A DNA stretch of 64,000 nt from a virus (IMGVR_UViG_3300046779_001841:192001-256000), one strand, 5' to 3'; numbered from the stretch's first letter, positions 8,108-58,495 are shown. Made by a program: numbers and translations. Notes: generated by a model not told the origin, from the letters alone.

Positions 8108-8192
8108 TTTAAACCCCTTTTCTTTCTAAAAAAAAGTAATCTTTCTATGATACATACATTCCATAAATTTAATAATTATTAAACCACCAACA

Positions 8193-36585: not shown

Positions 36586-37617
36586 ATGAATAAATATGCC
36601 ATCCAACAAATCTATCAATTAGCTTTGCATGAACAACATTCTAATACTTTAAGAATGGCTTGTATTAAAGCACTTAAAACATCATCTAAAATTCAAAAAT
36701 TCGGTAGTGATGAAAGTCATGCAAATGCTTTGAATAATCTATCACCATCTGAACAACAAGAAGTGAAAATTGGTATCTTTACACAAATCACAAATAAAAT
36801 TAAATCACTTGTTGAAACAGAAATTGGTCAAGATGTTTTGGAAACGATTACTGATTTAATCAACACTTCTGGTATTTCACATAAGATCAACAAGATCGAA
36901 ACAAAATTGAAAGCACCTAGCAATGAATTTGAAAAGATGATAAGTAATAAAGCGAAATCTTATGCTAAGGCATCAGATGCTTTAGCTTTTATTGCTAGAT
37001 TAACACAAGCTGAGAAACCAGAAGATATTGTTAAAGCCTTAGATGTATCTATGGATGAATTAGAACAAACTATTATGAATGTCACTGGTGAAAGTGTTGG
37101 TGGTTTTATTAAAGAGAAACCTGCTAATTGGTATAGACATTTTTATAAAGCTATTGCAGATATTAAAGAAGTATCTAAACTTTACACAGTAGAGTTGGCT
37201 GTTACTTTATTAGAGATTTCTATTGTTGGTGGTATTGGTATGTTTTTAGCAGGCAATCATGATGTTATGAGTATTTTTGGAAACTTATGGCATGGTGTAA
37301 AAGAAGTAATCACTTTAGTGATTGTGTCTGTAATACTCATGGATGTAAAAGACTCTGCTCAATTTATTAGAAAACAAGATATTTTTATCAAAGCGATACC
37401 TGTTGTTCTTATGAATGATCTTATTCGTGTTTTAAAATGGTCTTGGTCTAAAGTTGTTAGTTTCTTTAGTGATAAAATAGACGATGTTTCTGATTTCTTT
37501 TCTGATTGGTTAGGCAATGATAGTAAGACTGCATCGAACAAAGTATTTTTAGAAACTTTAAAATTAGCTAAACAAAATCCACATTTCCAAAACCAACTTC
37601 TACAAGTCATTTCTTAA
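36586..37617 (+). CDS. Hypothetical membrane-associated protein, paralog of 55998..56984
   Basis: Hydrophobic segments LAVTLLEISIVGGIGMFLAG and VITLVIVSVILM; IPVVLMNDLIRVLKWSWSKVVSFF matches LPLAILNDAISVLRWGFSEIKSFF. Confidence 0.7.
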   Translation: MNKYAIQQIYQLALHEQHSNTLRMACIKALKTSSKIQKFGSDESHANALNNLSPSEQQEVKIGIFTQITNKIKSLVETEIGQDVLETITDLINTSGISHKINKIETKLKAPSNEFEKMISNKAKSYAKASDALAFIARLTQAEKPEDIVKALDVSMDELEQTIMNVTGESVGGFIKEKPANWYRHFYKAIADIKEVSKLYTVELAVTLLEISIVGGIGMFLAGNHDVMSIFGNLWHGVKEVITLVIVSVILMDVKDSAQFIRKQDIFIKAIPVVLMNDLIRVLKWSWSKVVSFFSDKIDDVSDFFSDWLGNDSKTASNKVFLETLKLAKQNPHFQNQLLQVIS

Positions 37618-38182
37618 CAATTTTAGCTTGAACTTTCTTTTTTCTTTGTAGATTTAATTTAGCTTCTCGCTTCATCAAATCATAAGCATGGAACTTTTGC
37701 TTGGCATCTAATTTCATATTGCCTTCTATTGTTGCAAATCCACTATCTTTATCTATTCTTCTGGATGTTAAACCTAACACATTTGGCATAAGTGTCTTGA
37801 TAAGTTTAGGATCTATCATGTTAATAGAAATATCCCAAACCATAGCTAAGATCATAGGCGCACATACTTTTAATGGTTTTCCATCATATTCGCATGGCAT
37901 CTTTTCTTTATATAAAGAAACACCACTTTGTGTTTTTAATTCCATATCAAAGAAATAAACATCTTTAGGTTCTTGATTAAAAAATTCAAAATTGAAATGT
38001 AGATGTAAATTCTTATCACCAAAGATTGGTTTAATTTCTGTAATCGTTTGCCAACCATGTATCACGATTTGCAAATCTCTTGATTCGACTAAACGACTAA
38101 TAAATTCTTGTTCGATTTCTGTTAGTGGAATATATAAAGAATTTTTATTTCCACCACCAAACAAATTAGTGTCTTTACTCAT
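37607..38182 (-). CDS. Hypothetical protein
   Basis: 191-aa ORF coupled to the upstream small gene. Confidence 0.7.
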   Translation of the reverse strand: MSKDTNLFGGGNKNSLYIPLTEIEQEFISRLVESRDLQIVIHGWQTITEIKPIFGDKNLHLHFNFEFFNQEPKDVYFFDMELKTQSGVSLYKEKMPCEYDGKPLKVCAPMILAMVWDISINMIDPKLIKTLMPNVLGLTSRRIDKDSGFATIEGNMKLDAKQKFHAYDLMKREAKLNLQRKKKVQAKIVKK

Positions 38183-38406
38183 TTGTTTAATCCTTCTGGT
38201 CTTTCATCAAAATCACAAGTTTCTGGATTTACATCACATTGGTTATTGCAATCACATTTTGTAGTCGCATCACACCTAAATGGTGAATCTAAATGTTTTT
38301 GTTTTTCATCTTTAGATAATGCACACCAATCTGCTTTAGATCTTACTTCTTTATGTTGCACATGACCAATATTCAGTATCATTAAAAATAAGATTAAGTT
38401 TTTCAT
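38179..38406 (-). CDS. Small Cys-rich putatively secreted peptide
   Basis: Hydrophobic N-terminus MKNLILFLMILNIG, six Cys, upstream AAAGGG Shine-Dalgarno-like site. Confidence 0.55.
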   Translation of the reverse strand: MKNLILFLMILNIGHVQHKEVRSKADWCALSKDEKQKHLDSPFRCDATTKCDCNNQCDVNPETCDFDERPEGLNK

Positions 38407-38477
38407 AGATATTTACCCTTTCTTTGTATATATATTATACACTACAATATAAATAATTTCTTATTTATATTTTTTAT

Positions 38478-38550
38478 GGACTCGTAGCTCAATGGTTTGA
38501 GCAATGCTCTCATAAAGCAGAGGTTCTGGGTTCAATCCCCAGCGGGTCCA
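38478..38550 (+). tRNA. tRNA with CAT anticodon, probably Ile2 (lysidine-type); elongator Met not excluded
   Basis: Acceptor GGACTCG/CGGGTCC, D arm GCTC/GAGC, anticodon loop CTCATAA, T arm CTGGG-TTCAATC-CCCAG, discriminator A, no encoded CCA. G1-C72 excludes initiator; A3-U70 and C4-G69 resemble Ile2 tRNAs. Confidence 0.9.
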
Positions 38551-38565
38551 CTTTCTTAAAAAAGG

Positions 38566-38763
38566 ATGGTTATTATGGCAATGATGAAAACAGGCACACC
38601 TGCAACACAAGTAAATACTGAAACTATTCGTGGTTATCAAGATGGACTACAAGGCAATTCCAATCCACCAGAAGATAATGTACAACTTCAATTCTATAAT
38701 CAAGGATATGAACTTGGTCAAAAAGTTAAAAATGGTCAAGCACAAGCACCTATTTGGGCTTAG
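38566..38763 (+). CDS. Hypothetical protein (65 aa)
   Basis: AAGGA Shine-Dalgarno; GYQDG..YNQGYELG pattern. Confidence 0.65.
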   Translation: MVIMAMMKTGTPATQVNTETIRGYQDGLQGNSNPPEDNVQLQFYNQGYELGQKVKNGQAQAPIWA

Positions 38764-38795
38764 TTCAATAGTTTATTTATATTAATATATTAAAT

Positions 38796-38880
38796 GTAGT
38801 CACCTCCTGCAATTAGGTGTTCCTTGTTCGTGCGCACGAAACGATCCTACAAAAATTCGTGCAATTATCTTCTTTTCTTT
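38796..38880. ncRNA. Candidate structured non-coding element 1
   Basis: GC-rich island in an AT-rich spacer: outer GTAG/CTAC, hairpin CACCT/AGGTG, palindrome TTCGTGCGCACGAA (38827-38840), then AAAAA-TTCGTGC-AATTATCTT and a T-run. Confidence 0.4.
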
Positions 38881-38917
38881 GTATATCTTATTAAATTCTT
38901 AAAGAAAGGAATGACTT

Positions 38918-39316
38918 ATGAAATATCTTATCTTTTTCTCCTTGTTGCTTAATCATCTTTCTCTCTTTGCTCAAGAAGATAACCAACAATTATTATTGCC
39001 AGAATATCAACTTGTTAAGACTGCAGAAACAATTAAAGAATCTGCTAAAGTAGATCTAAGCACAATGGCAATTTTGCCTTTCTTAAATGATAATGTTAAG
39101 AAACTTGAATCGCTTTTAAAAGAAAAAGACAATCTTTTAAGAGAAAAAGATGCAGAGATATTAAAACTTATTCGTGCAAATACTCAACTTTCTCTTGAGA
39201 AAAAAGAATGTGAAGTAGATTATAAACATTGTAAAAATAGCACTTATCTACAATTAGGTATCACTGCACTTTCTACTGTTTCATCTGTATATGCAGGTGT
39301 TAAATGCACTCAATAA
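38918..39316 (+). CDS. Hypothetical exported coiled-coil protein
   Basis: Signal-peptide-like MKYLIFFSLLLNHLSLFA, coiled coil, hydrophobic C-terminus. Confidence 0.65.
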   Translation: MKYLIFFSLLLNHLSLFAQEDNQQLLLPEYQLVKTAETIKESAKVDLSTMAILPFLNDNVKKLESLLKEKDNLLREKDAEILKLIRANTQLSLEKKECEVDYKHCKNSTYLQLGITALSTVSSVYAGVKCTQ

Positions 39317-39360
39317 ATAAAAAAAGAGTGGATTTATTTTAAAGAATAATATAATCTGTA

Positions 39361-40488
39361 TTGCAGATACAATCATTTACACAAAAGGTTATAAATGTCG
39401 TGGATACTACCAAAAAATTTAATCACATCTCTTTATGCGCAGGATACGGAGGCATTGATCTTGGATTGTCAAGAGTTATCTCAAACTTGCGAACCATTGC
39501 TATTTGTGAGATCGAACTATATCCAATCCAAAACTTGGTTGCAAAAATGGAAAAAGGAATGTTACCTCCAACCCCCATTTGGCCGGATGTTAAAACTTTC
39601 CCATACCAAGACTTTTATGGAAAAGTGGATTTCTTTAGTGGAGGATTCCCATGTCAACCTTTTTCCAGTTCAGGAAAAAGAAAAGCAGATGACGACCCAA
39701 GACATCTCTTCCCTTATTTCAAAATGGGAATCCAGTTATGTAGACCTGCCTTTGTTTTTCTTGAAAATGTCAGAGGAATCATCTCAAGTACCATCAACAA
39801 TGATGGATGGTCAGATCCCAAAGGAACTCCAGTTTTGCTTCATGTCTGCAGGGAATTGGAAAGAATTGGTTATCAAGTTAAGTGGGGATTGTACACTGCG
39901 AGTGAAACAGGCTTGCCACATTCAAGACACCGAGTTTTTATCTTGGGTGCAAGAAATGACATCAAACAAGACCAATTCAAAGAATTTTCAAAATACTTCT
40001 CTTCTACCGAAAACAGTCAAGAATCAAACTTACAAAGAATTGGACAAGATTTTGCAGGTGTCGAAACCATCAAATCTAAGTACATTGCCACACCTAGAGG
40101 AAGAAACAGACAACAAGATAGACTTGAACCAAGAAGAACAAGATTACGAACTTCTAATGGAAGCGAATTGGGTAACACCAACCAAGAGCGATCCAGTGAA
40201 CATAGGCTTCGAGTATGTGATGAGAAGGTATCTGAACAACAGACAATTAATGGTAGCGGAACAGATAGCATTAGACATGAAACATCAATATCAGAGCCAA
40301 GAGAAATTAGATGTGAATCCACGATGGGTAGAAATGTTAATGGGTCTTCCGATTGGCTGGACTATGAAAGACTCTGCAACAGTTTTTCAAATATACAAGA
40401 TGAAATAGCTTTGCTTGGTAATGGTGTTGTCCCTGCTACTGCTGAAGTTGCTTTTAGAGATTTATTTAAACAACTGCTCGATGAATGA
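39361..40488 (+). CDS. C5-cytosine DNA methyltransferase, alpha polypeptide (probable GTG start at 39400)
   Basis: Motif I SLCAGYGG, IV GGFPCQPFS, VI FLENVRG, VIII HSRHRVFILG, X LLGNGVVP. No motif IX in this frame. Confidence 0.9.
   Translation: MQIQSFTQKVINVVDTTKKFNHISLCAGYGGIDLGLSRVISNLRTIAICEIELYPIQNLVAKMEKGMLPPTPIWPDVKTFPYQDFYGKVDFFSGGFPCQPFSSSGKRKADDDPRHLFPYFKMGIQLCRPAFVFLENVRGIISSTINNDGWSDPKGTPVLLHVCRELERIGYQVKWGLYTASETGLPHSRHRVFILGARNDIKQDQFKEFSKYFSSTENSQESNLQRIGQDFAGVETIKSKYIATPRGRNRQQDRLEPRRTRLRTSNGSELGNTNQERSSEHRLRVCDEKVSEQQTINGSGTDSIRHETSISEPREIRCESTMGRNVNGSSDWLDYERLCNSFSNIQDEIALLGNGVVPATAEVAFRDLFKQLLDE
39395..40408 (+). CDS. C5 methyltransferase beta polypeptide in an overlapping frame (carries motif IX)
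   Basis: 337-aa ORF almost wholly inside the alpha gene; ends VNPRWVEMLMGLPIGWT (motif IX-like); its ATG is 5 nt before the alpha GTG. Confidence 0.75.
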   Translation: MSWILPKNLITSLYAQDTEALILDCQELSQTCEPLLFVRSNYIQSKTWLQKWKKECYLQPPFGRMLKLSHTKTFMEKWISLVEDSHVNLFPVQEKEKQMTTQDISSLISKWESSYVDLPLFFLKMSEESSQVPSTMMDGQIPKELQFCFMSAGNWKELVIKLSGDCTLRVKQACHIQDTEFLSWVQEMTSNKTNSKNFQNTSLLPKTVKNQTYKELDKILQVSKPSNLSTLPHLEEETDNKIDLNQEEQDYELLMEANWVTPTKSDPVNIGFEYVMRRYLNNRQLMVAEQIALDMKHQYQSQEKLDVNPRWVEMLMGLPIGWTMKDSATVFQIYKMK

Positions 40489-40549
40489 AACTCAATAATT
40501 TATTTATATATCTTCTATTAATAGATTTTTCTAAAAAAGGGTTTCTAAA

Positions 40550-40829
40550 ATGAGATTTACTAGCTAAATTCTTTGTAGGTTGGTTATTAGAATCTGATTG
40601 CATTATTCAATATAAAAACAATAAAACTACCTTTAAAGATAATGTTTGGAATGGTGGTATCAAATATTACGATTGGACAAGACAAGCTGAACAAAAGTTG
40701 GCTAAAATTCATCAAGAACTTGATGAATTTCAATATGATTTAATCAAGTCTTTTTGTGAAGATATAGGTAAGTATCTTATGAGTATGATTGATGAATTAA
40801 TCAGATTAACAGCACTTTTTCAATCTTAA
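40550..40829 (+). pseudogene. Frameshifted small ORF (91 codons open from 40554)
   Basis: ATG at 40550 after an AAGGG site stops after 5 codons. The frame from 40554 reads DLLAKFFVGWLLESD...LTALFQS* with no start codon near its 5' end. Confidence 0.5.
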
Positions 40830-40847
40830 AAAGATGAATCTAATGGT

Positions 40848-41843
40848 TTAATAAAATATATGTGCTTGGCTTTCTGCATAAGCCTGATTACTAATTTCCA
40901 CCCATTTCGCTTTAAATTGTAATTCTCTTATTGTTCTTGCTCCACTATAACTCAATCCACTTCTTATATTGATTGCTATCTCATCCAATATATCATCTAC
41001 AGATCCTTTATATCCTACTTGATGACTTACACCTTCTACTGATCTCACTGTTCCTCTCCATTGTGATTGTGCTTCTTTACTTGCCATTCCTACATACTTC
41101 TTATATTTATTTCCATGTTCATCTGTATGCACTTTACCTGGTGCTTCATCTGTACCTGCTAAATATGAACCTAGCATTACAAAATTCGCACCACCTGCTA
41201 GACACTTAACCATATCACCTGTTGTCTTAATCCCACCATCTGCAATAATTGGCATCTCATAAGTTGAACTTGCACAATCAAATACACTCGCAAGTGTTGG
41301 AATACCATGTCCTGTTTGTATTCTTGTTGTACAAATAGAACCACCACCTATTCCTACACGAACTGCATTTGCACCAGCATCTATTAAAAATTCATAACCA
41401 TCTTTAGTCGCTACATTTCCAGCGATTACATATACTTTACCATAACCATATCTTCTTCTGATCTCTTTTAAAGCATCTCCTACAACTTTTGTATGTCCAT
41501 GTGCAACATCCAAACAAAAATCTGTAATTCCCATTTCTACAAATTTATCCAAATCATTGATCTCATTACAACCTATCGCAACACATGAACTTCTTGATCT
41601 GGATGAAAGTGAAATTCTTTCTTCTATGGTATTATATCTATGAATAACACCATAACCACCTTTTTTATTCATTGCCAAAGCCATTTCATCTTCTGTTACT
41701 GTTGTCATTGGTGATGACATAACAGGTAAAGATAAAGAACGATCACCTAGTTTAGAAGATAAATCTATTTCATCTCTGGATGCTATATCTGAATATTGTG
41801 GTGAAATAAGATAGTCATTGAAAGTTTTTAAAAGCATTTGCAT
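40848..41843 (-). CDS. guaB: IMP dehydrogenase / GMP reductase family protein without CBS domains
   Basis: [84 protein letters not shown]. Confidence 0.85.
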
Positions 41844-41909
41844 ATTCCTTATATAAAAGACAAACCAAATAATTATACTATCTATTTCTATCCTACAAGC
41901 ACGAATTTT

Positions 41910-44900
41910 TTATTGATTTTTAAAATACCTTCTTGTGAATAAGACCAAGATCATTAGCATAAACAATAAATTCGCTGTGTGATCTATATTCTGGCAACTA
42001 CCACCTTGAAATTTTGTCTTTTTAGTTGTGCCTTTGTCTTCATACATTATAGGATACATATCATCTAGTGGTTGCACTTTCATGTCTTTAATCATTTGAT
42101 CTAAAAGCATATCAATATCTTTATCTACTCGCATATCATTTTCTATACTCATATCATTTTCTTGAACATTAAGATTATTGTCACTTAACACTCGTATTCT
42201 AAATGACTGTTCTGTTCTACCACCATCATATAGATAATGATCATCACTTCCTTGATAATCTAATGCGATCAAATTTACACTCGCTTCTGTTCCTGCTAAA
42301 TTTGATGCTACTCTCCATTCTAATCTAAATAAATTCTCATCTATCTGTTCGATTGTCATTTCTGTTGGTGACCCTGCACCTAATTTCACTTCAATCAAAT
42401 CAAACTTTCCTTGATCTTTCACTTGTATATCATATTTATATATCCTACCTGCATAAGCTATTGTATCTGGCAAACTAATAAATACTGGTGCAGTGTTTGT
42501 GACATGAACTCTAATCTTGTTATAGTAACCAAATGGTGAAATCATTTTAATCGTGTAAATACCATCATCTTCAAATAAATATGATACTTCTTCTCCATGC
42601 TTATCCACTTCATTTTCCAGCAACCATAAATAATCACTCGTTTCATCTGTTTCAAGATTACAATTTTCCAAATTCACTTTTGGATTATCTATTTCTGTTG
42701 CACTTAATACTACACAACGACCTTCTTCACTTTGAATATTATCCACTGTTAATAACCATGCTTCTACATCTACTTGCTTGATTATTTCTGTTGTTGTATT
42801 TGACCACTCATCATGTATTAATATTTTCACTGGCATTACACCTGCTCTATGTGCTTCATATATTTGATTACCACTCCAACTTCTTTCTCTCTCAAACACA
42901 CCATCATTCTCAAAATCTATCGTATATAACAAGTCATCTACATCTATGTCATTTGCCATAACATTTAATGTTAATACACCATCATCTTGCCATACTTGAA
43001 CTTCATTTAATTCTGTTGGATGATTTACTACTTGGATTTCTTTTGTAAAAATTTCCGATTGTCTGTTTGATGTGAAACCTTTAATCTTTACTAGATATGG
43101 TGTTTCTTTCCACTCATATTTATGTTCAAGAGAATTATTGACTACACCATCATTCCAATCCACTTCATAGTTAAGAAATAAAGTATCACTGATTACTCTT
43201 AAATTTACTAATCCACCTGCACCTATCTCTACATCTACATCCGAAATCAAAGGTGTTGGTTGTGGTTCAATTACAATAGAAATCTCTGTTTCTACATTTG
43301 ACCAAGTATCTTTGACTTTAAGATATAAGGTATGTTGCTGATTTACATCTAAATCAAAGATCTCTAAATTTGTTCTTTCTTCATATTCTTGATCTGCATT
43401 TACTTTCCAATAATATTTTAAGACACTTGTATCTGGATCTGTTGCATTTACTACAATTAGATAACTACCACCTGCTAATAAATGTTTATTCATGTTTAAG
43501 ATTGTAGGTGCATCTGGAATAATAATCTCTGTAATTCTTGAAGTGCTTAAACCATTTGTGTCTTTAACTGTTATTAAAGCAGGATAAGGTTCTGTTCGAT
43601 AAGGTAAATCAAAATCTAATTGTGTATATGTATTACCATTCACTTCTACTATATAAGATAACTCATCATTGTTTGGATCTTTGGCATCTACAATAAGCCA
43701 ACATTTACCTGCATATCCTATGAGATTTGTGATCGAATTAATCATAGGTGCTTGGTTTTCCATGAAGTTTAATGTTTCTAATATTTGTTGTGATTGCGAA
43801 CCACGACTATCCATTACACTCACACTTGGAGTAAAACTACCATAAGATGTATATGTATACACAAATATGCCAGTGTTATTTGTTATAGACGAACTACCAT
43901 CACCTGCATTAAATACATATTGCAAACTATCATTATCCATATCAGTCGCATTTACAAACACTGTTATCGTATTTGTGTTTTGTGTTACATCTACATCTAA
44001 AACTAATGGTGCTTGATTAAAAGTATTTAAATTGACTTGATATTCTCTCTCTAAACCTAAATTGTCTTTTACTATAATGCGAACTGGTGTTTCATCACTT
44101 GTAGCTTTAAATGTATATGTATTCAAACTACTATTCACTACTTCTACATAAGCAATATCATTTATATCTATTGTGTAAGATAAGCTATTCGCCTTGTTAA
44201 ATGAATATGCTTGACTATATAGACTACTTGTATCTGAACCATCAAATGCACTTACTGTAAAAATACCAGTGTTTAGACTTACTATATATGGTGTAATAAA
44301 TGGTGGTGTATCTACAACAATATTGTCATTAAAAGTAGCAGTGATGAATGGATCAAAATCTGTTATTGTTGCAATACCTTTTACTTCGATCATTGGATTT
44401 GGTTCTGCATAGATTTGTATCTCATAGAAACCATTACCTTGTTTTTCTATTTCTACTGATGAAATAATTGGACTTAAATTTCTATGCTCAACTAAAAGAC
44501 TTTCTATCACTGGTGGAATATTTGGCACTTCTACATATATACTTTTTGTTGATACTAGACCACCACTATCAGTAGCAGTCACTTTAATCGTATCTATTCT
44601 ATAACCATCGCCTACAGGTATATATTCATACACACCTGTTGCGATTTCATTAAAACTACCTTGACCTGATATAACTTCTACTTGATAAGACACATTTAAA
44701 TTCTCAGGATCAAAAGATTGATTAAGATCTATGAGATTATTCGATACTGTTTCTACAATGACTGGTGGTTGAGTATTTGGCAAAATATTTACGATCACCG
44801 AACCAAAAGAACATAAAGAACAATCTGTTTTTTCTACACCATCAAGACAACTATCTGTCCATTGACCATCATCACAAATTTTAAAAGGAATAGATATTTT

Positions 44901-47063: not shown

Positions 47064-47166
47064 ATTTACCTCGTCAAAGAAAAAGTCTTAAACAAAGTAA
47101 AAACATTTAAAGTTTAATAAATGATTTATTTTAAAAGTCTTTGTTAAAAAACATTTAAAATAAAGG

Positions 47167-48168
47167 ATGGTAAAAATGGCTGTTCATTATGTAGATATAA
47201 CCAAAGACGATTTAGAGAATTGGTTGGATAGTTTAGGTAAAAAATGGACAAAAGATGTCACAAAAGCAGGTATTTATTACATACATTTATCAAATACTGT
47301 TGCTGTTAAACTATCAAGTACTTTGTCTGGCACTCAAACAACAATGGATTATGCCAAAGCATCAATGAAGTTATCTTTAGTAAGTTTGGTAACAAAGAAA
47401 CTCTTAAATAAGAAAGATGCAGATCGTTCGCATTTTAAGAGAACTACAAATTGGAAAACAACATGGAAAGAAGGTGTTGATCATTGGGAATCCGTGTATA
47501 AAAATGCCAAAGGTTTTTATGATCGTATATCAGTAGTAGAAGACCAAGAGCAATATAAAGAAAATTGGTTATCTAAAATAGAGAGTGTTCAAAATTGGGA
47601 AAGTGTTTCTATCTTATCTCAATTACATAATAAGGTGCAAACAGGCACGATTTTAAGTCCAAATCAAGAAGGTGCGATTCTTAAATTTGTTAAGAATGTA
47701 AGATCAGTGCCAACACCTGTTGTGGAAGAATCAAGAACACCAGTATCATCTTATAAAGAAGAATGGTTATCTAAGATAGAAATTGTTCCAAATTGGGAAG
47801 ATATAGATTTCTTATCACAAGTACATGATAAAGTGTTAAGAGGTGTGAGATTAAGTCCAAATCAAGAAAATGCCATTCTTAAATTTGTTAATAATGTAAA
47901 ATCAAGGTCAAGACCTGTCCATGTAGAACAACAAAGACCTGTAATGCAACAAAGACCTGTTCATGTAGAGCAACCTGCAACACAAGTACATTTTACACCA
48001 GAGCAACAAAGAGCAATGGCAAGATTAGAAGCATTAGTAGAAGTAGCAAGTCCAGTGGATTCAACTTTTACACTGATCATGATCAATAAAGCTAAAAAAG
48101 GCATTAAGTTGTCTGATGAAGAAAAACAAAAACTTATTGGCTTATTAAGACAATATAACATTCAATAA
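47167..48168 (+). CDS. Hypothetical protein with two ~66-aa internal repeats (start may be 47176)
   Basis: YKENWLSKIE..LSPNQEGAILKFV and YKEEWLSKIE..LSPNQENAILKFV. Confidence 0.75.
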   Translation: MVKMAVHYVDITKDDLENWLDSLGKKWTKDVTKAGIYYIHLSNTVAVKLSSTLSGTQTTMDYAKASMKLSLVSLVTKKLLNKKDADRSHFKRTTNWKTTWKEGVDHWESVYKNAKGFYDRISVVEDQEQYKENWLSKIESVQNWESVSILSQLHNKVQTGTILSPNQEGAILKFVKNVRSVPTPVVEESRTPVSSYKEEWLSKIEIVPNWEDIDFLSQVHDKVLRGVRLSPNQENAILKFVNNVKSRSRPVHVEQQRPVMQQRPVHVEQPATQVHFTPEQQRAMARLEALVEVASPVDSTFTLIMINKAKKGIKLSDEEKQKLIGLLRQYNIQ

Positions 48169-48179
48169 GGAGAAGATAA

Positions 48180-51100: not shown

Positions 51101-51662
51101 AGAAGTTTTCTTTCCTATACAAGAAGATGATGGCAAAGAAAAAGATGATGAAGAAGAAGATAAATCAAAAGATTATGAGATCATGTTATCTTTATTAGAT
51201 TTTACAGATAATCCAGCAGTAGTAACTTTAGCAGATGTTATTGTAGAGATTAAAAAATTCACTAAAACTGTAGAAGAAGGTAGAAAAGAAAACAAAGGTA
51301 TGTTGATAGACACTATGCACCAATGGAAAGGTTTAGAGTGTAAATATCTCACCACTATTTTTGCTGATAATTTCCCAAGAATGAAAGGTGATGATATGAC
51401 TGATGAAGAGTATGAAGCAGAATTAGCAAGTGAAAGAAGACTTGCTTATGTTGCTTTAACTCGTGGTCAAGATCAAGTGCGTGTTATATCTAATACTCAA
51501 GTTAAAGTATGGGATAGTACTGTAAAAGATTGGAAAATGAAAAATGTTACACCATCTAGGTTTATTGAAGAGGCTTGTATTCCACAAAAATTTAAAGTAG
51601 AAAAACAATCTTCATTGGAAATTCATGTAGAAGATATATTGCATTTCATGATTAAAAAATAA
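48180..51662 (+). CDS. uvrD: UvrD/REP-family SF1 helicase with long N-terminal extension
   Basis: LTPEQENA, AAGAGSGKT, VDEAQDLN, IGDDKQAIYEFRGA, NFRS, TMHQWKGLE, ERRLAYVALTRG. Confidence 0.9.
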   Translation: MAKSRKIAMSDEQEEVLDKKTLLDLTRFLLILKKCVDLQLPENIINDGLDLYRLNISKIQEIGDMLFDEIVANSSRLNPFYTKYRLAKKTFDVESLNNRIPLIEGCFKYLHLNQVSLIEFAENEPVLVLNLKDIIQGILENNLNESLKLLLNIPSFLFLKSGARSPQNWIEALIKANITGASKTQKVDAILAINQSYVNLAKDIRTLDTQIRSFTPNSREFIEKQEQRQELLTKLINEVQDKEGNDAKNILSNLTSIIHSSETHQTVVGARLKLTPEQENAMMVDGKSIIAAGAGSGKTRVLAGRVAWLIQEKGVPASSIMATSFTANSATELKERIEKPEFAGDGAIQGKGFGTSHSIAFSILQQFSPVSNVDFNLDSKLMILALKQVQMSPTSGVPLGKMSNKPIFNQYTQNDIDNYIKMVNTFMDYANYFLSQSSTPPDAKEDLKKDIVVLNQIIQNKLLPYDLSKDQKDHLNNMIASPRGKQVFNRLIGEYKLTHLERLQKIGSEEENQPYRDLQRESDKRQKGKSPKDSPYNTEPANMWFNLGLNQEGIEAQASLLKNAGLFDKADNLQDDFEEFLKKAHGESKFFQKQVSKCYNNVMSVKQLKDSLKPNFLNNALVAVYGAYLWLKENDLTFANTISGDDMLIKAIGLMLEKPSVLSALQTQYKHIMVDEAQDLNKSQHIFFGLIAGTINPGNLLPYTDGRPMRAKSFVLIGDDKQAIYEFRGATPQTFIEKSDLLQGDFKTAIIPTNFRSGNSIVDSANKLIAYNDQIPMTCVSVPSKGLGTIYTEKTPDPSFTAPAIHLMAEIKTHIGLGGKIEDYGVATRSKKQAFPFLLEALKEKIPFRSQINPLSKENFQAIFRWLEFISLPDSDVSKLNSLILELYKGGTVFYLGEKNFTEPLKEYLQANRNANLLTNMPLHLFPQTSTSFVKSSVEKYLNVLVSARQIQGSATDCLVKLLKLKDLKKHTFAEVFFPIQEDDGKEKDDEEEDKSKDYEIMLSLLDFTDNPAVVTLADVIVEIKKFTKTVEEGRKENKGMLIDTMHQWKGLECKYLTTIFADNFPRMKGDDMTDEEYEAELASERRLAYVALTRGQDQVRVISNTQVKVWDSTVKDWKMKNVTPSRFIEEACIPQKFKVEKQSSLEIHVEDILHFMIKK

Positions 51663-51697
51663 TTGCAAATTTAGAATTTCTGTGTAATGTAATAATC

Positions 51698-51780
51698 GTG
51701 ATTGCTAAAGTGGACTTAGCTTTTTCCACCTGTATGACATAGGCAGGTATCACAAAAACTATGTCAATTATCTTTTTTTT
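51698..51780. ncRNA. Candidate structured non-coding element 2
   Basis: Outer GTGAT/ATCAC, hairpins GCTAA/TTAGC and ACCTG/CAGGT, then AAAAA-CTATGTC-AATTATCTT and a T-run. The tail CTATGTCA is complementary to internal TGACATAG. Confidence 0.45.
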
Positions 51781-51785
51781 ATATA

Positions 51786-51834
51786 TGTTGCAAAGATAGC
51801 TAAACCACAAGTGTTATATATATGTCGATAATGA
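51786..51834 (+). promoter_or_regulatory. Duplicated promoter-like element, copy 1
   Basis: tgttgcaaagatagct-aaaccac-aagtgttatatatatgtc-ga-taatga is near-identical to 53738-53786 and lies ~28 nt before an ATG. Confidence 0.65.
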
Positions 51835-51861
51835 CAAACTCTCAAAAAAGGAAAATGAGAT

Positions 51862-52083
51862 ATGAAAACTTTTACTCACAATGAAATTTTAGCAATGATA
51901 CAGGAAGCATTTCTTAAACCAATGTCTGAGATACTTGAAACAATCACAAAACTTGAAGCAAATGAAGTAAGAGATGAAGTAAGAATTGCTTATCTTTATA
52001 AAGAATACCATTCTAAAAACTCTGAAAGAGAAAAAGCAGTAAAAGCTATGGAAGACTACTATTTTAGAGAAGGAAAAAAATAA
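51862..52083 (+). CDS. Hypothetical protein (73 aa)
   Basis: AAGGA Shine-Dalgarno; downstream of the duplicated promoter. Confidence 0.7.
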   Translation: MKTFTHNEILAMIQEAFLKPMSEILETITKLEANEVRDEVRIAYLYKEYHSKNSEREKAVKAMEDYYFREGKK

Positions 52084-52367
52084 TGACTATCATCTATGAA
52101 ACTACCAATCCAATGTTTGAAACTATCTGTTCAAATATTGAACATTCTCATTCAATAGCTATAGTAACATATATTCAGAATATTGATGGTGGTGTTATTG
52201 TAAAACTTGATGATGTAGAAAGTATCTATGATAAGATAACTATCTTAGAAAAAGATGACAAGTATGATGTTTGTTTTGAATATCATGGTTCAAAGCCACA
52301 TACTGAAATCATAGAAAAAGAAAACTTAGGAATGTATTTAAGAAAAAAGACCACCATGTTTGTTTAG
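52083..52367 (+). CDS. Hypothetical protein (94 aa)
   Basis: TAATG stop/start overlap with the previous gene. Confidence 0.7.
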   Translation: MTIIYETTNPMFETICSNIEHSHSIAIVTYIQNIDGGVIVKLDDVESIYDKITILEKDDKYDVCFEYHGSKPHTEIIEKENLGMYLRKKTTMFV

Positions 52368-52813
52368 CAAGGTGTCACTTTTAAAGGATATTTGAAAGTA
52401 TAATAAGTTGCCATGCAACCATGAATAGTTTTATGAACATATTCATGATCGTCTGGATTATCACTTTCAAAATAAAAGCGAACATAATCATAAGTTGTAC
52501 GATAGACACATAGAAAAAGAATTACATCTTCTCTCTTTCTATATTTAGAAAGCAATTCTTCATATATAGAAAAAGCACAATCATATTCCGATCTACCGAA
52601 AAGAACAGATTCGTATTTAGTATCATCATCAAAACGAAAAGGTGTGATCTGATTTTTTTTACAGAATGGGTAAAAAAACTTATTTCTTTCTTTAGCATTT
52701 AAATCTTTCACATCAAATCGGTATTCATCACCATATTTTTTTATGAGATTTTTATCAGTGCTATTTGCCAGTGCATCTAGCAGTATGTCTTTATCTTTAA
52801 AATAGAGATACAT
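52364..52813 (-). CDS. Hypothetical protein
   Basis: ATG at 52813 with AAGGA Shine-Dalgarno; the ORF-track start at 52870 is probably overextended. Confidence 0.65.
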   Translation of the reverse strand: MYLYFKDKDILLDALANSTDKNLIKKYGDEYRFDVKDLNAKERNKFFYPFCKKNQITPFRFDDDTKYESVLFGRSEYDCAFSIYEELLSKYRKREDVILFLCVYRTTYDYVRFYFESDNPDDHEYVHKTIHGCMATYYTFKYPLKVTPC

Positions 52814-52872
52814 TTTTAATAATCCTTTTATATGTTGATAAATATATTGAAAGAATACAAAGGACTTCAATT

Positions 52873-53121
52873 ATGTTTAAACGATTCGCTAGAAATCTTA
52901 AAATAGAAAATGCTATTCATAATATAGATGATATGCTTGATGATATTATGGAAATAAAAGTATCTTTTCAAGATACCGAATCAATAGCATATACTGAAAT
53001 TCAAAATAGTAATCTCTTTCAACAAAACATTGGTGGTGTAATGCCAGCACTTAAAGCGATTTCCGAAGCAGAAAAACAACTTAATATTGCTAAAAACCTA
53101 TTGTTAAGACAAGGTAGATGA
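52873..53121 (+). CDS. Hypothetical protein (82 aa)
   Basis: AAGGA Shine-Dalgarno; helical composition. Confidence 0.65.
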   Translation: MFKRFARNLKIENAIHNIDDMLDDIMEIKVSFQDTESIAYTEIQNSNLFQQNIGGVMPALKAISEAEKQLNIAKNLLLRQGR

Positions 53122-53122
53122 A

Positions 53123-53722
53123 ATGAGAAAATTAAGAATTTTAAGAGCAAAACTCGAATTTGTTAAAAACAAATTTATGGATCTTGATAATGCAACATTG
53201 CAAAATCACCCAGAAGATCAAGAAGAAATTTGGAATATGTATGAACAATCATACAAGAATATTGGTATGCACTTAAACAAGACTAAATTATTGACTAAGT
53301 ATGATGATTGGGCTTTAGAAGATGTGGATGAAGATCCATATGCAGACATTTTCATTACATTTACAGATACACCACATGGTAAAAAATTAGGTGTTGCTGG
53401 TAATGATGGTGGTTCTGAAGCTAAAACTGCTATTAAAAATGCTATTGGAAAATATCTTACAAAGCCAGGATATTATGCAGAACTTTCTTTAACTTTAGAA
53501 TACATTGCACAAAAACGCGGAGTGCCTTTCATTGATAATGAAGAAATTGTTACCGAAGTTTTAGGTGGCAAAGCGATTGAATGGGAAGGTGATGGTTATT
53601 ATTCAAGACAATTAGGTGAAATGGGTCGTGTTTCTAAAAGACTTTATGGTTATCCAAAAGGTGTAGATCAAGCATTATTACAAGATAGTCTTAGATTTAA
53701 AGGTGAAGTTAGAAATCATTAA
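53123..53722 (+). CDS. Hypothetical phage protein
   Basis: 199-aa ORF; YEQSYKNIG..KKLGVAGNDG..GYYAELS..GYYSRQLG pattern recalled from large-phage hypotheticals. Confidence 0.7.
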   Translation: MRKLRILRAKLEFVKNKFMDLDNATLQNHPEDQEEIWNMYEQSYKNIGMHLNKTKLLTKYDDWALEDVDEDPYADIFITFTDTPHGKKLGVAGNDGGSEAKTAIKNAIGKYLTKPGYYAELSLTLEYIAQKRGVPFIDNEEIVTEVLGGKAIEWEGDGYYSRQLGEMGRVSKRLYGYPKGVDQALLQDSLRFKGEVRNH

Positions 53723-53737
53723 AATATTTTTCATTTC

Positions 53738-53786
53738 TGTTGCAAAGATAGCTTATCCAGAAGTGTTATATATATGTCAGTAATGA
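53738..53786 (+). promoter_or_regulatory. Duplicated promoter-like element, copy 2
   Basis: tgttgcaaagatagct-tatccag-aagtgttatatatatgtc-ag-taatga. Confidence 0.65.
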
Positions 53787-53811
53787 ATAACAAAACACAA
53801 AGGAAAAAAAA

Positions 53812-54102
53812 ATGATTGCACAAGAAATCTTAAATCAATTAGGTGGTGGTAGAAAATTAAGTTTCATGATTGGTCTTAAAAATGCTATTGGTAAACCTAA
53901 TGGACTTGATCTCAAGTTTCCTAAATCACCAAAAAAAATAAACTATGTCAAGATCACTTTGAATGAAAAAGATTTATATGATCTTGAGTTTTGTACTTTA
54001 CATAATAGTGTTCTTAAAACTATCTCTGTTGAAAATGACATCTATGCAGAAGATTTGAAAAGATGTTTTGAAAGAAACACTGCATACTATTTAACTTTTT
54101 AA
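53812..54102 (+). CDS. Conserved hypothetical phage protein (ILxQLGG family)
   Basis: EILNQLGGGRKLSFMIG..NYVKITLNEKDLYDLEF..IYAEDL..FERNT. Confidence 0.75.
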   Translation: MIAQEILNQLGGGRKLSFMIGLKNAIGKPNGLDLKFPKSPKKINYVKITLNEKDLYDLEFCTLHNSVLKTISVENDIYAEDLKRCFERNTAYYLTF

Positions 54103-54152
54103 TTTATCAATTTTCTTATCCTATATATATAACATCTAAAAAAGGATAAGTC

Positions 54153-55148
54153 ATGTTTAAGCATATATCTAAAGAACGATCTGATGAAGAAAAAAAAGAA
54201 ATCTATGACAAATGGAAAAAACTTATTAATATGTCTGAGAAAGAACTTAAAGAATGGGGTGATAATCCAGATCATCTTGAAGCATCTTTAAATAGAGAAG
54301 AAGCTAAAGATAATGGCAAAATCCAATCAGGTTATGATTCTTTTCATCGTATCAAAAGAAGAAAAGACAAACCATTTGAAGAATGGACTGCACAAGATTT
54401 TGATAATGCAAGTCAAGAGAATGGTTTTAATGGTCGTATGCTTGGTGGTAATCCAGGTAAACCTGTAGGTTCAACAGGTAGAAGTAAATGGGAAATATCT
54501 TTAAGAAATTGGGGTCATGATCCAAGTAAAGCAAATAGTCCTGGTCATAGTAAATGGAAAAAATGGAAAAAAGATAATGAAGAAGAAATTAAAAAATCTA
54601 AAGCTAAAAAAGAAGCATCTCTTGTTATGCGTGCCTATGAATTAAGCTACCTTTTTGAGAATACTAATGATCTTAGAACTGCTTGTGTGAATTGCCTTTT
54701 ACAATCCAATCCACAAACAAAAAACGAATTTAAAAAAGAACTTTTAAGAGTAGCTAGTAGAAACCATGTATTTAATGAAAGCATAGTTTCTAATACTTTT
54801 GCCATGCGAAAAGCAACAACAATCAATCAAATCAAATCTGCATTAAATCCATCTATTGTACCTAGCACAAAACAAATCATTGGTGAATACACTGGCAAGA
54901 ATAAAGTAAACACTTTTCAAGTCGGTGAATATCAAGTAAATGTTTTACTTGATGCAAATGATAATGTGTTTGTAAATTGTGATTGTGGTTTCTGGAAATA
55001 TCAAGGTGCAGAATATCATGCGAAACAAGATGGTTATTTACTTGGTAATCCAAAAGGCACTGCAGAAAAGCCACAAGTAAAAGATCCAAATGGAAATAAT
55101 AAAGTTTGCAAACATATCTTAGCAGTCTTAGAGAAAATAAAAAGTTAA
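54153..55148 (+). CDS. DUF3140-like domain fused to a SWIM-like zinc finger
   Basis: KWKKLINMSEKELKEW..SKWEISLRNWGHDP (DUF3140 pattern); VNCDCGFWKY..VCKHILAVL. Confidence 0.7.
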   Translation: MFKHISKERSDEEKKEIYDKWKKLINMSEKELKEWGDNPDHLEASLNREEAKDNGKIQSGYDSFHRIKRRKDKPFEEWTAQDFDNASQENGFNGRMLGGNPGKPVGSTGRSKWEISLRNWGHDPSKANSPGHSKWKKWKKDNEEEIKKSKAKKEASLVMRAYELSYLFENTNDLRTACVNCLLQSNPQTKNEFKKELLRVASRNHVFNESIVSNTFAMRKATTINQIKSALNPSIVPSTKQIIGEYTGKNKVNTFQVGEYQVNVLLDANDNVFVNCDCGFWKYQGAEYHAKQDGYLLGNPKGTAEKPQVKDPNGNNKVCKHILAVLEKIKS

Positions 55149-55183
55149 GATCTCTTGTATAATAAATAAAAACAGGAGTTATT

Positions 55184-55576
55184 ATGCCTACATATACATA
55201 TCAATGTAAAGAATGTGAATTAGAATTTAATGTCACAAAAAAGATGTCTGAATCTTCAACACCAGAAAATTGTCCAGATTGTTCTGCGAGTGATTGTGTT
55301 AAAATACCATCTATGCCACAAGTCATGTTTAAAGGTGATGGTTGGATTGATAAAAACAATCGTATAAGTAAACAAATGGAAAGTAAAAATAAGAAACTCG
55401 AAGTAAGAGAAAATGAAATGAAAAGAGATGCACCTAGTGTTAAACTTGTACCTAATGTAGATGGTGAAAGAGTAGATTCATGGTCTGATGCTCAAAAGTT
55501 GGCAAAAGACAAAGGCAAGAATACAGAAAGCTATAATGATCTTGTTAAGAAAGAAGATACTTTAAAGAAAAATTAA
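55184..55576 (+). CDS. FmdB-family zinc-ribbon protein
   Basis: MPTYTYQCKEC..CPDC..PSMPQVMFKGDGW. Confidence 0.85.
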   Translation: MPTYTYQCKECELEFNVTKKMSESSTPENCPDCSASDCVKIPSMPQVMFKGDGWIDKNNRISKQMESKNKKLEVRENEMKRDAPSVKLVPNVDGERVDSWSDAQKLAKDKGKNTESYNDLVKKEDTLKKN

Positions 55577-55601
55577 TACATATTCTATAAGTATTTCATA
55601 T

Positions 55602-55937
55602 ATGAACATAAACACAAAAGGATTAAAAATGAAAAAGCTATCATCTCTTAAAAGAAGATTAAAGAAAGCCAGTGAAATGCTTTCACACACCATGTTTGAA
55701 GAATATGATTTTAATGAAGATCAAATGATTGGTCGTGATGAATGGGAAGGTGAAGATGAAGTATTTTCTTTATTAGATACTAATAAAGATGAATATCTGG
55801 ACAATGATGAAATAGGATATGGTGTTGGTCAATCCTTTGCAAGACAAGCGAGTGATGAAGAATATTTAACACCACAAGAAATTGCAGATATTTTAGGTGG
55901 AACATTAATGTCTGTTAGAAGAAATGAAAGACCTTAA
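55602..55937 (+). CDS. Small EF-hand calcium-binding protein (probable start 55629)
   Basis: DFNEDQMIGRDEW and DTNKDEYLDNDEI both fit the 12-residue EF-hand loop. Confidence 0.7.
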   Translation: MNINTKGLKMKKLSSLKRRLKKASEMLSHTMFEEYDFNEDQMIGRDEWEGEDEVFSLLDTNKDEYLDNDEIGYGVGQSFARQASDEEYLTPQEIADILGGTLMSVRRNERP

Positions 55938-55997
55938 ATATCAATAATCTTTTTATTTTCTATCTTTGTTTGTTAATAAAAACCACAAGGATTAAAA

Positions 55998-56984
55998 ATG
56001 AATAGATCACAAACTATCGCTACATTATATAAATTATCTTTCCAATCACCACAAGGTCATAATTTAAGACAGGCTTGTCTTATGGCAATGGGTAAAATTC
56101 GTCTTGCAAATGAACAAGACAAAGTAGAAACTATTGTTGAAGATTTGGAAAATGCACCTAAAAATGTTCAAGATGAAACTAAGCTAAATATAGTTAGTGA
56201 ATTGGCAATCAAAACTATTGAAGAAGAAACCAAAAGACTTGCACCTAAAGGTTTGAACTTAATTAAAGCATGGATTAAGAAACATAGTGTTCAAATAAAA
56301 GATATTCAAAACAAAGCATTTGCAATAGCGACTTCTCCTATTGATGCAGTTTCCATCGCTTTTGATGTTATACAATTTAATCTAAACAAAAAGAAAGATG
56401 GTGGTGATCTTGTAGGCACTATTGGTTTTATTGCATCTGTTCTTTCTGCTGATTCTCCAGAAGATCTTGTTGAATCAGAAAGTAAAGAATGGGAAAAATT
56501 TAAACCTTATTTACCAGCATTTTTAGGTTTGGGTGCGGCCGCTGTTGATGAACATTGGATTCATATTCAAAAATATGTTTTGAAATATGGATATGAAACA
56601 ATGACTGCAGTTAAGATGTGGATAAAAGGTGCATCTTGGTTAAAAATTGTAGGTACTGTAGCAGGTTCTTTTACAATCATTTTAGCACTATGTGTTCTTT
56701 TTGGCACACATAACATTTATATGTTACTTAAAAAAATCGCAACACTTGTCTTTGGTTTACCTTTAGCTATTCTTAATGATGCTATTTCTGTTTTGAGATG
56801 GGGATTTAGCGAAATTAAATCTTTCTTTAATAATGCTGGTAAAAAAGTTCAAGACTGGTGGGATGAAGAAGAAGGTGAGATTGTTAAAAAAACTGCCAAT
56901 CGTATTGTCCTTCGTGAATTTAAAAAACTTGCTTTACATGATGAAAGATTTTATCGTCTTGCAAATAAATCCTTTGGTCTTTAA
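55998..56984 (+). CDS. Hypothetical membrane-associated protein, paralog of 36586..37617
   Basis: IVGTVAGSFTIILALCVLFG and IATLVFGLPLAIL hydrophobic segments; shared terminal modules. Confidence 0.72.
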   Translation: MNRSQTIATLYKLSFQSPQGHNLRQACLMAMGKIRLANEQDKVETIVEDLENAPKNVQDETKLNIVSELAIKTIEEETKRLAPKGLNLIKAWIKKHSVQIKDIQNKAFAIATSPIDAVSIAFDVIQFNLNKKKDGGDLVGTIGFIASVLSADSPEDLVESESKEWEKFKPYLPAFLGLGAAAVDEHWIHIQKYVLKYGYETMTAVKMWIKGASWLKIVGTVAGSFTIILALCVLFGTHNIYMLLKKIATLVFGLPLAILNDAISVLRWGFSEIKSFFNNAGKKVQDWWDEEEGEIVKKTANRIVLREFKKLALHDERFYRLANKSFGL

Positions 56985-57814: not shown

Positions 57815-58495
57815 ATGCCTTATGTGCTACCAAGAAGAACTGACTTGCAAGATGGTGCAATTCAAATCAAAGATTTATTTTTCAATAAATCTCAATACAA
57901 AGCAACTACCGAACCTTATGCACAGGGTCCCTTATATGTGAGAGCATCCGATTTGAACAAATCAGGTCATACTGCACCTATGATTGTTTCAAATGGTGAT
58001 GAAAGATCATTTTTAAGAGCAACACATGGTCTATTAGCTTATGTTTTAGTTTATGTCGATAATAATGGTGTTGCATTAACAAAAGCACAAGCTATTGAAG
58101 TTGTAGATGCTATTCAACAAGAACTTGTTGATGGTAATGTTTTAAATAATTTACAAGCAGTTGTAACAGCGATTGATGCAGATTATGATTTCAATGGTGA
58201 AGTAGAAGATGTTCTTCGTATTTTATCAGGCGATAAGTTTGAATTTAATGCTGGTGTTACATTCCAAGATGATGCAGGTGCTTATGTAGTTCCTGTAGGT
58301 GTTGGTAGTTTCTCAACACCTAATGATAGAAGATTGATCACTGGTGATACTACTTGGGAAACTTCTCTTGCAAGTGGTGAATTGTATCAATATTCAACAA
58401 ATGTTACTACTTATGCTGGATCTAAACAAAAAGATTCAGCTAATAACGATATTCCTTTAATCATTGTTTATAAAAACGATGGCACTTTAGCTTAA
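57815..58495 (+). CDS. Putative virion structural protein, paralog of 58508..59212
   Basis: RRTDLQDGAIQIKDLF.NKSQY..QGPLYV..LIIVYKNDGTL. Confidence 0.65.
   Translation: MPYVLPRRTDLQDGAIQIKDLFFNKSQYKATTEPYAQGPLYVRASDLNKSGHTAPMIVSNGDERSFLRATHGLLAYVLVYVDNNGVALTKAQAIEVVDAIQQELVDGNVLNNLQAVVTAIDADYDFNGEVEDVLRILSGDKFEFNAGVTFQDDAGAYVVPVGVGSFSTPNDRRLITGDTTWETSLASGELYQYSTNVTTYAGSKQKDSANNDIPLIIVYKNDGTLA

Follow-up and report, generated by a model that had tools for sequence, protein, structure and literature searches.

What is the role of a short helical module that recurs next to basic-x-Ala motifs in several proteins of an uncultured jumbo phage? The locus lies in a stretch of 64,000 nucleotides (IMGVR_UViG_3300046779_001841:192001-256000), here called the window, which comprises bases 192001-256000 of a single-contig genome of 316,221 bp and 31% G+C. 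An initial annotation had proposed that the module, of about 25 residues, and adjacent [KR]-x-A motifs together form a code by which the phage tags diverse, unrelated cargo for capsid packaging and maturation cleavage. Three genes carry the module, and their products are referred to as P0001 (gene at 36586), P0002 (55998) and P0003 (54153); coordinates are those of the window unless genome positions are indicated. Searches were run against a working proteome of 365 open reading frames (ORFs) called genome-wide (99,730 residues). We found that the module is a helix-turn-helix conserved at the N-terminus of a single phage protein family, which has two members here (36586 and 55998), and that it is no general address label.

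The module and the membrane-protein family

The following features were assigned to P0001 and P0002:

36586..37617, + strand: P0001, 343 residues, a stand-alone member of the membrane-protein family (translation, paralogy, homologues, alignment, AlphaFold2 (AF2) model)
36601..36675, + strand: N-terminal module of P0001, residues 6-30, a helix-turn-helix closed by R-M-A-C at residues 23-26 (module profile, AF2)
37525..37614, + strand: K-T-A-S (residues 314-317) and C-terminal helix of P0001 (site list, AF2, alignment)
55998..56984, + strand: P0002, 328 residues, second paralogue of the membrane-protein family, with the module at residues 7-31

A hidden Markov model (HMM) built from the three module copies (residues 6-30 of P0001, 7-31 of P0002 and 158-182 of P0003) matched exactly these three proteins among the 365 ORFs, the next best match having an E-value of 0.23. 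P0001 and P0002 aligned from the first to the last residue (BLASTP 3e-13), and an HMM of the family matched them at 1e-109 and 2e-92, respectively. Eight homologues of P0001 were recovered at 46-99% identity, while orthologues of P0002 were found in relatives L001 (69% identity) and L002 (38% identity) with gene order kept. Because P0001 and P0002 are full-length paralogues, their shared N-terminal module and C-terminal helix represent ordinary family conservation. The N-terminal module and the C-terminal K-T-A-[S/N] helix are, moreover, two different conserved helices: hhalign gave a probability of likeness of 0.5%, so that they cannot be taken as copies of one module, as had been suggested. 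Neither of them resembled the canonical N-terminal leader of this genome (hhalign 0.3-0.4%), which is borne by a 13-protein cluster elsewhere in the genome. All sequence strings quoted in the initial annotation, the basic-x-Ala ones included, were present at the genes named, and the three copies of the module are real; the description of their bearers as unrelated was wrong for the genes at 36586 and 55998.

P0001 consists of the N-terminal module, a helical body with a helix-turn-helix-like motif, two to three hydrophobic helices and the C-terminal helix. Its AF2 model had a mean confidence (predicted local distance difference test, pLDDT) of 56.6, with both terminal helices at about 80. The module was modelled as helices 3-14 and 20-32; the post-module site lies in the low-confidence linker behind them (35-46), and the K-T-A-S region (residues 310-315) is a loop preceding a helix at 316-330. 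P0002 contains R-Q-A-C (24-27) in the module, R-L-A-N (35-38) directly past it and K-T-A-N (298-301) ahead of the C-terminal helix. In the family alignment, the module also has conserved hydrophobic positions besides the basic-x-Ala sites. P0001 had no match among cultured phages, and in the ESM Atlas it matched only viral clusters without names, at scores <0.8. Ahead of the hydrophobic helices, residues ~135-165 of P0001 form a well-conserved helix-turn-helix-like stretch (A-x-T-P-E-x-I...; pLDDT up to 84) that is likewise present in P0002; together with the hydrophobic helices, this suggests a DNA- or protein-binding module anchored in the membrane.

A DUF3140-like carrier with interchangeable cargo

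The third copy of the module lies in the interior of P0003, between two domains:

54153..54587, + strand: DUF3140-like domain of P0003, about residues 1-145 (Pfam PF11338 below threshold, homologues, profile search, AF2)
54609..54620, + strand: K-E-A-S junction, residues 153-156, between the carrier domain and the module (site list, homologues)
54624..54698, + strand: module copy, residues 158-182, with R-T-A-C at 175-178 (module HMM, BLASTP, AF2)
54747..54758, + strand: R-V-A-S, residues 199-202, the second flanking site, ahead of the SWIM part (site list, orthologues)
54804..55145, + strand: SWIM zinc-finger cargo, residues 218-331 (Pfam PF04434, structure match)

The N-terminal domain of P0003 scored 13.7 bits against PF11338 (cut-off 25) and covered profile positions 2-91 of 92; proteins retrieved with a profile of its clade reached 27-43 bits for PF11338 in the same region. 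It was modelled at a pLDDT of about 90 (mean of the whole P0003 model, 78.7). The SWIM finger was above its cut-off (27.3 bits at residues 260-285, cf. 19.6), with C-D-C and C-K-H visible in the translation, and this part gave a structural match to ZSWIM8 (Z 5.5). Between them, helices 143-165 and 172-183 were modelled at pLDDT 85-95 within a small helical bundle spanning residues 143-214, for which VIA-align (residues 148-214) returned only generic helical bundles (Z ≤ 6.5). Foldseek found no match to the P0003 fold in the PDB at E ≤ 0.001, in searches that barely covered the DUF3140 part.

Using residues 1-152 of P0003 as the query, we recovered 113 homologues of the carrier domain at 50-100% identity, mostly on contigs of 200-375 kb. 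The part behind the carrier in these relatives was a SWIM finger, a membrane protein of the P0001/P0002 type, an N-terminal nucleophile (Ntn) hydrolase (Pfam AAT), a JmjC/Cupin_8 hydroxylase, DUF5661, or a short helix only; in a few relatives GNAT or NusA_N stood in front of the DUF3140-like domain. In these homologues, the DUF3140-like domain is the constant part of a family in which partner domains are interchangeable across related freshwater jumbo phages, with the membrane protein often fused behind it. P0003 is such a fusion, in which the junction and the module are kept and a SWIM finger stands in place of the membrane body. In a MAFFT alignment P0001, P0002 and their stand-alone orthologues were homologous over their full length to the cargo of the membrane-type DUF3140 fusions, module and C-terminal helix included, and in relative L007 the SWIM part is encoded as a gene of its own (131 residues). 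Since P0001 and P0002 align with fusion cargo and the SWIM part stands alone in L007, P0003 has the module in common with P0001 and P0002 (BLASTP, E = 0.004 and 0.097, respectively) through descent and domain shuffling. The module therefore does not tag diverse cargo; its three copies genome-wide were passed on within one family.

The Ntn-hydrolase fusions of the relatives (P0026, P0027, P0029, P0034, P0063, P0076, P0089, P0096, P0108 and P0113) share an invariant Cys, a near-invariant K-x-A ahead of it and an invariant R-D-R-N-Y behind it. This class scored 25.2 bits for Pfam AAT (cut-off 23.2), and comparison with the PDB by sequence and profile gave nothing relevant. The K-x-A lies directly ahead of the invariant Cys (C154), with invariant R171/D172 17-18 residues on. 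In Ntn hydrolases, which classically cleave themselves, cleavage of the precursor makes the nucleophile the new N-terminus. By analogy, we infer that the invariant Cys would be the N-terminal nucleophile and that a cut exactly at the Ala-Cys bond of K-x-A-Cys would be needed, because such a nucleophile must be exposed as the N-terminus.

On a more distant phage contig (L013:5680-8127), a protein of >800 residues carries a G-G-I-P-type motif at its N-terminus along with a DUF3140-like and a PAPS-reductase-like domain (phrog_424).

Conserved basic-x-Ala sites around the module and the junction

Although P0003 is rich in Lys and Arg over residues 1-152, it contains no [KR]-x-A there; all five of its sites fall within residues 153-231. 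Across the clade, the junction motif [KR]-x-A-[SCNGT] was found 14-61 residues past the W-G-H-D-P end of the DUF3140 domain in 91/111 members, compared to 14/83 distant DUF3140 proteins (a set from the profile search, outside the clade), and the form with Ser, [KR]-x-A-S, in 75/111 and 6/83, respectively. Clade members without the junction [KR]-x-A mostly had K-K-S-S. As only six of the distant proteins have [KR]-x-A-S at this place, the junction motif is specific to this phage clade and not intrinsic to the DUF3140 domain. An HMM of 87 junction peptides from relatives, when searched against the proteome, was significant for P0003 only, with leader proteins next (E = 0.08 or worse).

The membrane family was examined over 13 sequence groups, with 18 control tripeptide patterns for comparison. 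[KR]-x-A occupied four conserved positions: ahead of the module, within it (as R-x-A-Cys), directly behind it, and at the C-terminal helix. Each was present in at least 9 of the 13 groups, whereas the control patterns gave 0-1 such positions. The R-x-A-C column inside the module was kept in 11/13 groups, [KR]-x-A occurred at the C-terminal-helix column in most family members, and P0003 orthologues kept [KR]-[VT]-A at the position of R-V-A-S. These results indicate that the consistency with which basic-x-Ala positions flank the module and the C-terminal helix exceeds chance, and to this extent the proposal that such motifs mark boundaries stood for the sites that flank the module. It did not stand for UvrD, the gene at 60871 and the helicase insert, whose sites were indistinguishable from chance, and no evidence of tagging was found for UvrD, the helicase insert or the other proteins listed with them.

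Enrichment of [KR]-x-A-Ser in head proteins

Among the 63 window proteins used for motif counts, [KR]-x-A occurred 138 times, compared to 140.8 ± 11.3 in shuffled sequences; the motif is thus at chance level, in line with a caveat of the initial annotation that it is common by chance, and the counts lend it no support as a code. With Ser as a fourth residue, the window proteins contained 12 sites (9.4 ± 3 shuffled). In the whole genome, [KR]-x-A-S was enriched about twofold overall; K-x-A-S was observed 71 times (30 ± 5.6 shuffled) and R-x-A-S 43 times (13.5 expected from composition). When the leader, R-L-A-S-L and head families were left out, the genome still contained 71 [KR]-x-A-S sites compared to 38.7 ± 6.2 shuffled, whereas [KR]-x-A followed by any residue other than Ser was at expectation (512 observed, 511.7 expected). 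Eleven permutations of the motif, used as controls, were all at expectation. The extra Ser is therefore required for enrichment, and the three-residue [KR]-x-A is not enriched; three-residue motifs need testing against shuffles before being read as codes.

The strongest concentration was in four head-region proteins, with 21 [KR]-x-A-S sites compared to 2.3 expected, about ninefold. Nine of these lie in a 694-residue coiled-coil, scaffold-like protein and nine in a 967-residue protein; the major capsid protein (phrog_2522) has one, at residue 27, and the head-maturation protease has two, at residues 25 and 267, flanking the stretch (115-260) that matches the protease family. This protease, sought since the initial annotation, was located outside the window at genome 289836-291320 (phrog_18299, E 9.7e-15), with portal, scaffold-like and capsid genes adjacent. 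Capsid-protein orthologues were 87-99% identical, too alike to judge conservation of the site. A head-protease specificity of the type basic-x-Ala, cut before Ser, was not found in the phage literature searched.

The canonical leader is a separate matter, in that an HMM of it gave no significant match over the window proteins. A second family of leader-like type, different from the canonical leader, was observed at genome 149825-152353 (- strand; L017:9825-12353), where four small proteins begin with one or two R-[LM]-A-S-L-R repeats followed by K-K-A-S or K-S-S and have a common upstream motif containing G-T-T-T-A-A-T-A-A.

Association of DUF3140 with polyvalent proteins and a head protease

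The clade profile search gave 704 representative proteins, many with PF11338 above threshold. DUF3140 occurred above the Pfam threshold in proteins of 1,000-2,900 residues beside ART-PolyVal, LPD3, LPD23, ddrB-ParB, Zeta toxin, NUDIX, topoisomerase IB, GNAT and RimK, and in one representative (P0155) together with InPase and Phage_Mu_F. The domain thus shares proteins with ART-PolyVal, LPD, ddrB-ParB and MuF domains, all of them found in bona fide polyvalent proteins. Polyvalent proteins have been argued to be packaged in the capsid and delivered with the DNA, their domains being released proteolytically (Iyer et al. 2017, PMC5512222). P0003, which has only the DUF3140-like domain, the helical module and the SWIM finger, is minimal in this respect and lies at the lower edge of the polyvalent definition (2-15 effector domains).

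Two haloviruses were the only members of the cultured phage collection that carry the carrier domain. Gp10 of Haloarcula virus HCTV-6 (MZ334519.1, L021:4329-5492) and that of HCTV-15 are annotated as prohead proteases and combine a protease domain (phrog_15680, residues 1-209) with a C-terminal DUF3140-like domain at ~225-330 (pairwise E 2e-10). This fusion, which is unrecorded, hints at a possible role of DUF3140 in the capsid interior. A full-text search for DUF3140 found no paper, Iyer et al. 2017 included.

Processing and packaging as a proposed explanation

Taken together, the conserved sites and the domain associations point most readily to the module-bearing family being capsid-loaded cargo that is processed by the head protease, a reading whose chances we put at about even. 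Members of the family would enter the prohead as precursors, and a cut by the head protease after the Ala of [KR]-x-A-[S/N/C] would part the cargo from the DUF3140 domain. As propeptides, possibly with a docking role, both the module and the C-terminal helix would be removed, in the manner of the leaders and the long, repeatedly cut propeptides known from head proteins of T4, phiKZ and SPN3US. The flanking [KR]-x-A-[S/N/C] sites of the family, its proposed cut sites, match the [KR]-x-A-Ser concentrated in the scaffold-like protein, the capsid protein and the protease.

A broader version of this proposal, which we offer tentatively and consider rather doubtful, is that in a clade of freshwater jumbo phages the DUF3140-like domain may be a universal carrier that loads interchangeable effectors (a membrane-inserting protein, SWIM finger, Ntn hydrolase, JmjC hydroxylase or DUF5661) into the capsid, to be freed by a head protease of an undescribed specificity (Lys/Arg-x-Ala, cut before Ser). 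The module would then be cut out as a piece for docking or as a propeptide, and DUF3140 would generally be a docking domain of the capsid interior.

Several observations weigh against processing and packaging. The phage is uncultured, and the case rests on sequence and models. The protease was assigned on PHROG profiles alone, its class having no sequence match in Pfam, NCBIfam or the PDB. The genes of P0001, P0002 and P0003 are far from the head module, and they could not be assigned to a late promoter when upstream regions were compared and scanned for a G-T-T-T-A-A-T-A-type motif; by CpG content they are outside the CG-free early class, which says nothing further. In the P0003 model K-E-A-S and R-V-A-S lie inside helices of the confident bundle, so that a folded domain fits as well as a linker. 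P0001 and its closest orthologue have K-F-G-S and not [KR]-x-A-S past the module, each single site is missing from three or four of the family groups, and the residue after the Ala (P1') varies (S, N, C, A, T, Y), making the motif looser than the one enriched genome-wide. In addition, proteins with hydrophobic helices are unusual capsid cargo.

In the main rival explanation, the module and the C-terminal helix would be ordinary folded parts in which basic-x-Ala supplies helix-capping or packing residues, with no cleavage or packaging, and the DUF3140 proteins would be intracellular host-takeover or regulatory proteins with swapped effectors. We regard it as quite possible, though on balance unlikely to be correct. 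Besides the confident bundle at residues 143-214 of P0003 with two sites inside its helices, it can draw on the conservation of hydrophobic positions of the module beyond the sites, on the placement of the genes among small regulatory-looking genes (Zn-ribbon, EF-hand) and not in the head module, and on the lack of motif enrichment in the window overall. It does not account for the absence of the junction motif from distant DUF3140 proteins, which shows that the motif is not intrinsic to the domain, or for [KR]-x-A being kept in otherwise variable linkers in a manner unmatched by the 18 control patterns. The ninefold enrichment in head proteins, the K-x-A directly ahead of the Ntn nucleophile Cys, and the associations of DUF3140 with polyvalent proteins and a head protease also speak against it, the last of these pointing to the virion.

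That a shared helical module and [KR]-x-A together make up a phage-wide code, tagging many unrelated cargo proteins (UvrD, the helicase insert, the giant proteins, the EF-hand protein and the product of 60871) for packaging and cleavage, is very unlikely, as the counts largely refute it. Only three proteins, all from one lineage, carry the module; the counts of [KR]-x-A match chance in the window and, once Ser is left out, in the genome; the canonical leader is on no window protein; and module, leader and C-terminal helix are mutually unlike. What can be said for such a code is that a genuine leader family of a different kind exists elsewhere in the genome, that the EF-hand protein has two [KR]-x-A-S sites, and that three giant SNF2 paralogues share R-[VF]-A at one aligned column ahead of a conserved C-tail, which bears out the earlier remark on R-V-A/R-F-A in the giant proteins. 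We consider it at least as improbable that the Ala-Cys and Ala-Ser junctions are autoproteolytic (Ntn-type or similar) with no involvement of the head protease. The Ntn (Pfam AAT) class, with its invariant Cys right behind K-x-A, belongs to enzymes that classically self-cleave and would suit this explanation, but the SWIM, membrane and JmjC cargo keep the motif without an Ntn fold, the scaffold-like protein is filled with the same motif, and the near-invariant K and A ahead of the Cys are not required for self-cleavage.

If processing by the head protease and loading into the capsid are correct, they would provide a first functional context for DUF3140, a compact set of candidates, modular by nature, for effectors that uncultured jumbo phages deliver from the capsid, and independent, homologue-based support for a basic-x-Ala head-protease specificity with cleavage before Ser.

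Neighbouring genes in the window

One further feature lies between P0003 and P0002:

55602..55937, + strand: EF-hand protein, 111 residues (Pfam EF-hand), with K-K-A-S at residues 21-24 and R-Q-A-S at 81-84

The order of this gene between the DUF3140-SWIM gene and the membrane paralogue was kept in L001 and L002. The protein has a basic N-terminal helix ending in K-K-A-S and a C-terminus like a sigma-70 region-4-type helix-turn-helix (Pfam E 0.036); its match to the leader HMM was not significant (E = 6). It is possibly a further substrate of the head protease.

The giant SNF2 paralogues (window 1682-14465, - strand, and genome 187736-193390) carry their R-[VF]-A ~60 residues from the end, ahead of a conserved acidic, coiled-coil tail ending in G-D-L-K-P. 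A 333-residue protein (window 47167-48168, + strand) contains two tandem units of ~65 residues (W-L-S-K-I-E...S-P-N-Q-E...A-I-L-K-F-V) followed by a Q/P/V-rich linker, and had no family match. Two adjacent paralogues of ~230 residues (window 57815-58495 and 58508-59212, + strand) are 30% identical to each other and share 58-91% identity with counterparts in relatives; neither matched a PHROG. These two and the product of a highly conserved 238-residue gene upstream could be structural proteins.

Comparison with known systems

Head-protease motifs with removable targeting pieces are a well-known concept. SPN3US offers a good model for the processing proposed here: its head proteins lose propeptides of 20-254 residues through several cuts, and its protease cleaves a piece off its own C-terminus (PMC10052503). 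The systems of T4 (IPI-III, Alt, gp21), phiKZ (gp175) and SPN3US (gp245) (PMC10052503, PMC5694885) have in common with the present one a phage-encoded head protease and a short motif repeated in scaffold, capsid protein and protease. They also have N-terminal propeptides (20-254 residues) that are removed in repeated cuts, a C-terminal self-cut of the protease and enzymes delivered with the DNA, features that the present system is predicted to share. As in those phages, the head protease gene here is beside portal, scaffold and capsid genes, and one motif is over-represented in the scaffold, the capsid N-terminus and the protease, although this holds for [KR]-x-A-S only. A common targeting peptide on unrelated cargo was not found, as the three module proteins are all linked by descent. 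The present system also differs in its motif (basic-x-Ala, with a predicted cut before Ser, instead of a cut after (L/I)-x-Glu or (A/S/G)-x-Glu), in that the module occurs within one family and is not a common leader on unrelated cargo, and in that a folded, 145-residue DUF3140-like domain precedes the site.

Polyvalent proteins (PMC5512222) resemble this family in their DUF3140 domain, their mix-and-match effectors and the predicted delivery with the DNA followed by proteolytic release of domains. In contrast, P0003 is built of only two to three parts, different cargo is joined to a single constant N-terminal domain, and release is proposed to be by the head protease at a clade-specific motif and not by an embedded zincin peptidase. 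With the leader proteins of its own genome, the family shares the K-x-A-S motif and the same proposed protease, whereas the leader is found on many unrelated small proteins and the module on one family.

The MuF-anchored polymorphic toxins of temperate phages, reportedly described by Jamet et al. in 2017, are said to have a constant, head-associated N-terminal domain and highly variable C-terminal effectors. The present family is alike in having a constant N-terminal domain and variable C-terminal effectors; its constant domain is DUF3140-like and its cargo types differ, while P0155 has both kinds of domain. New here, overall, are a DUF3140-centred, cargo-swapping family, a junction motif specific to the clade, and the finding that the module is not a general tag.

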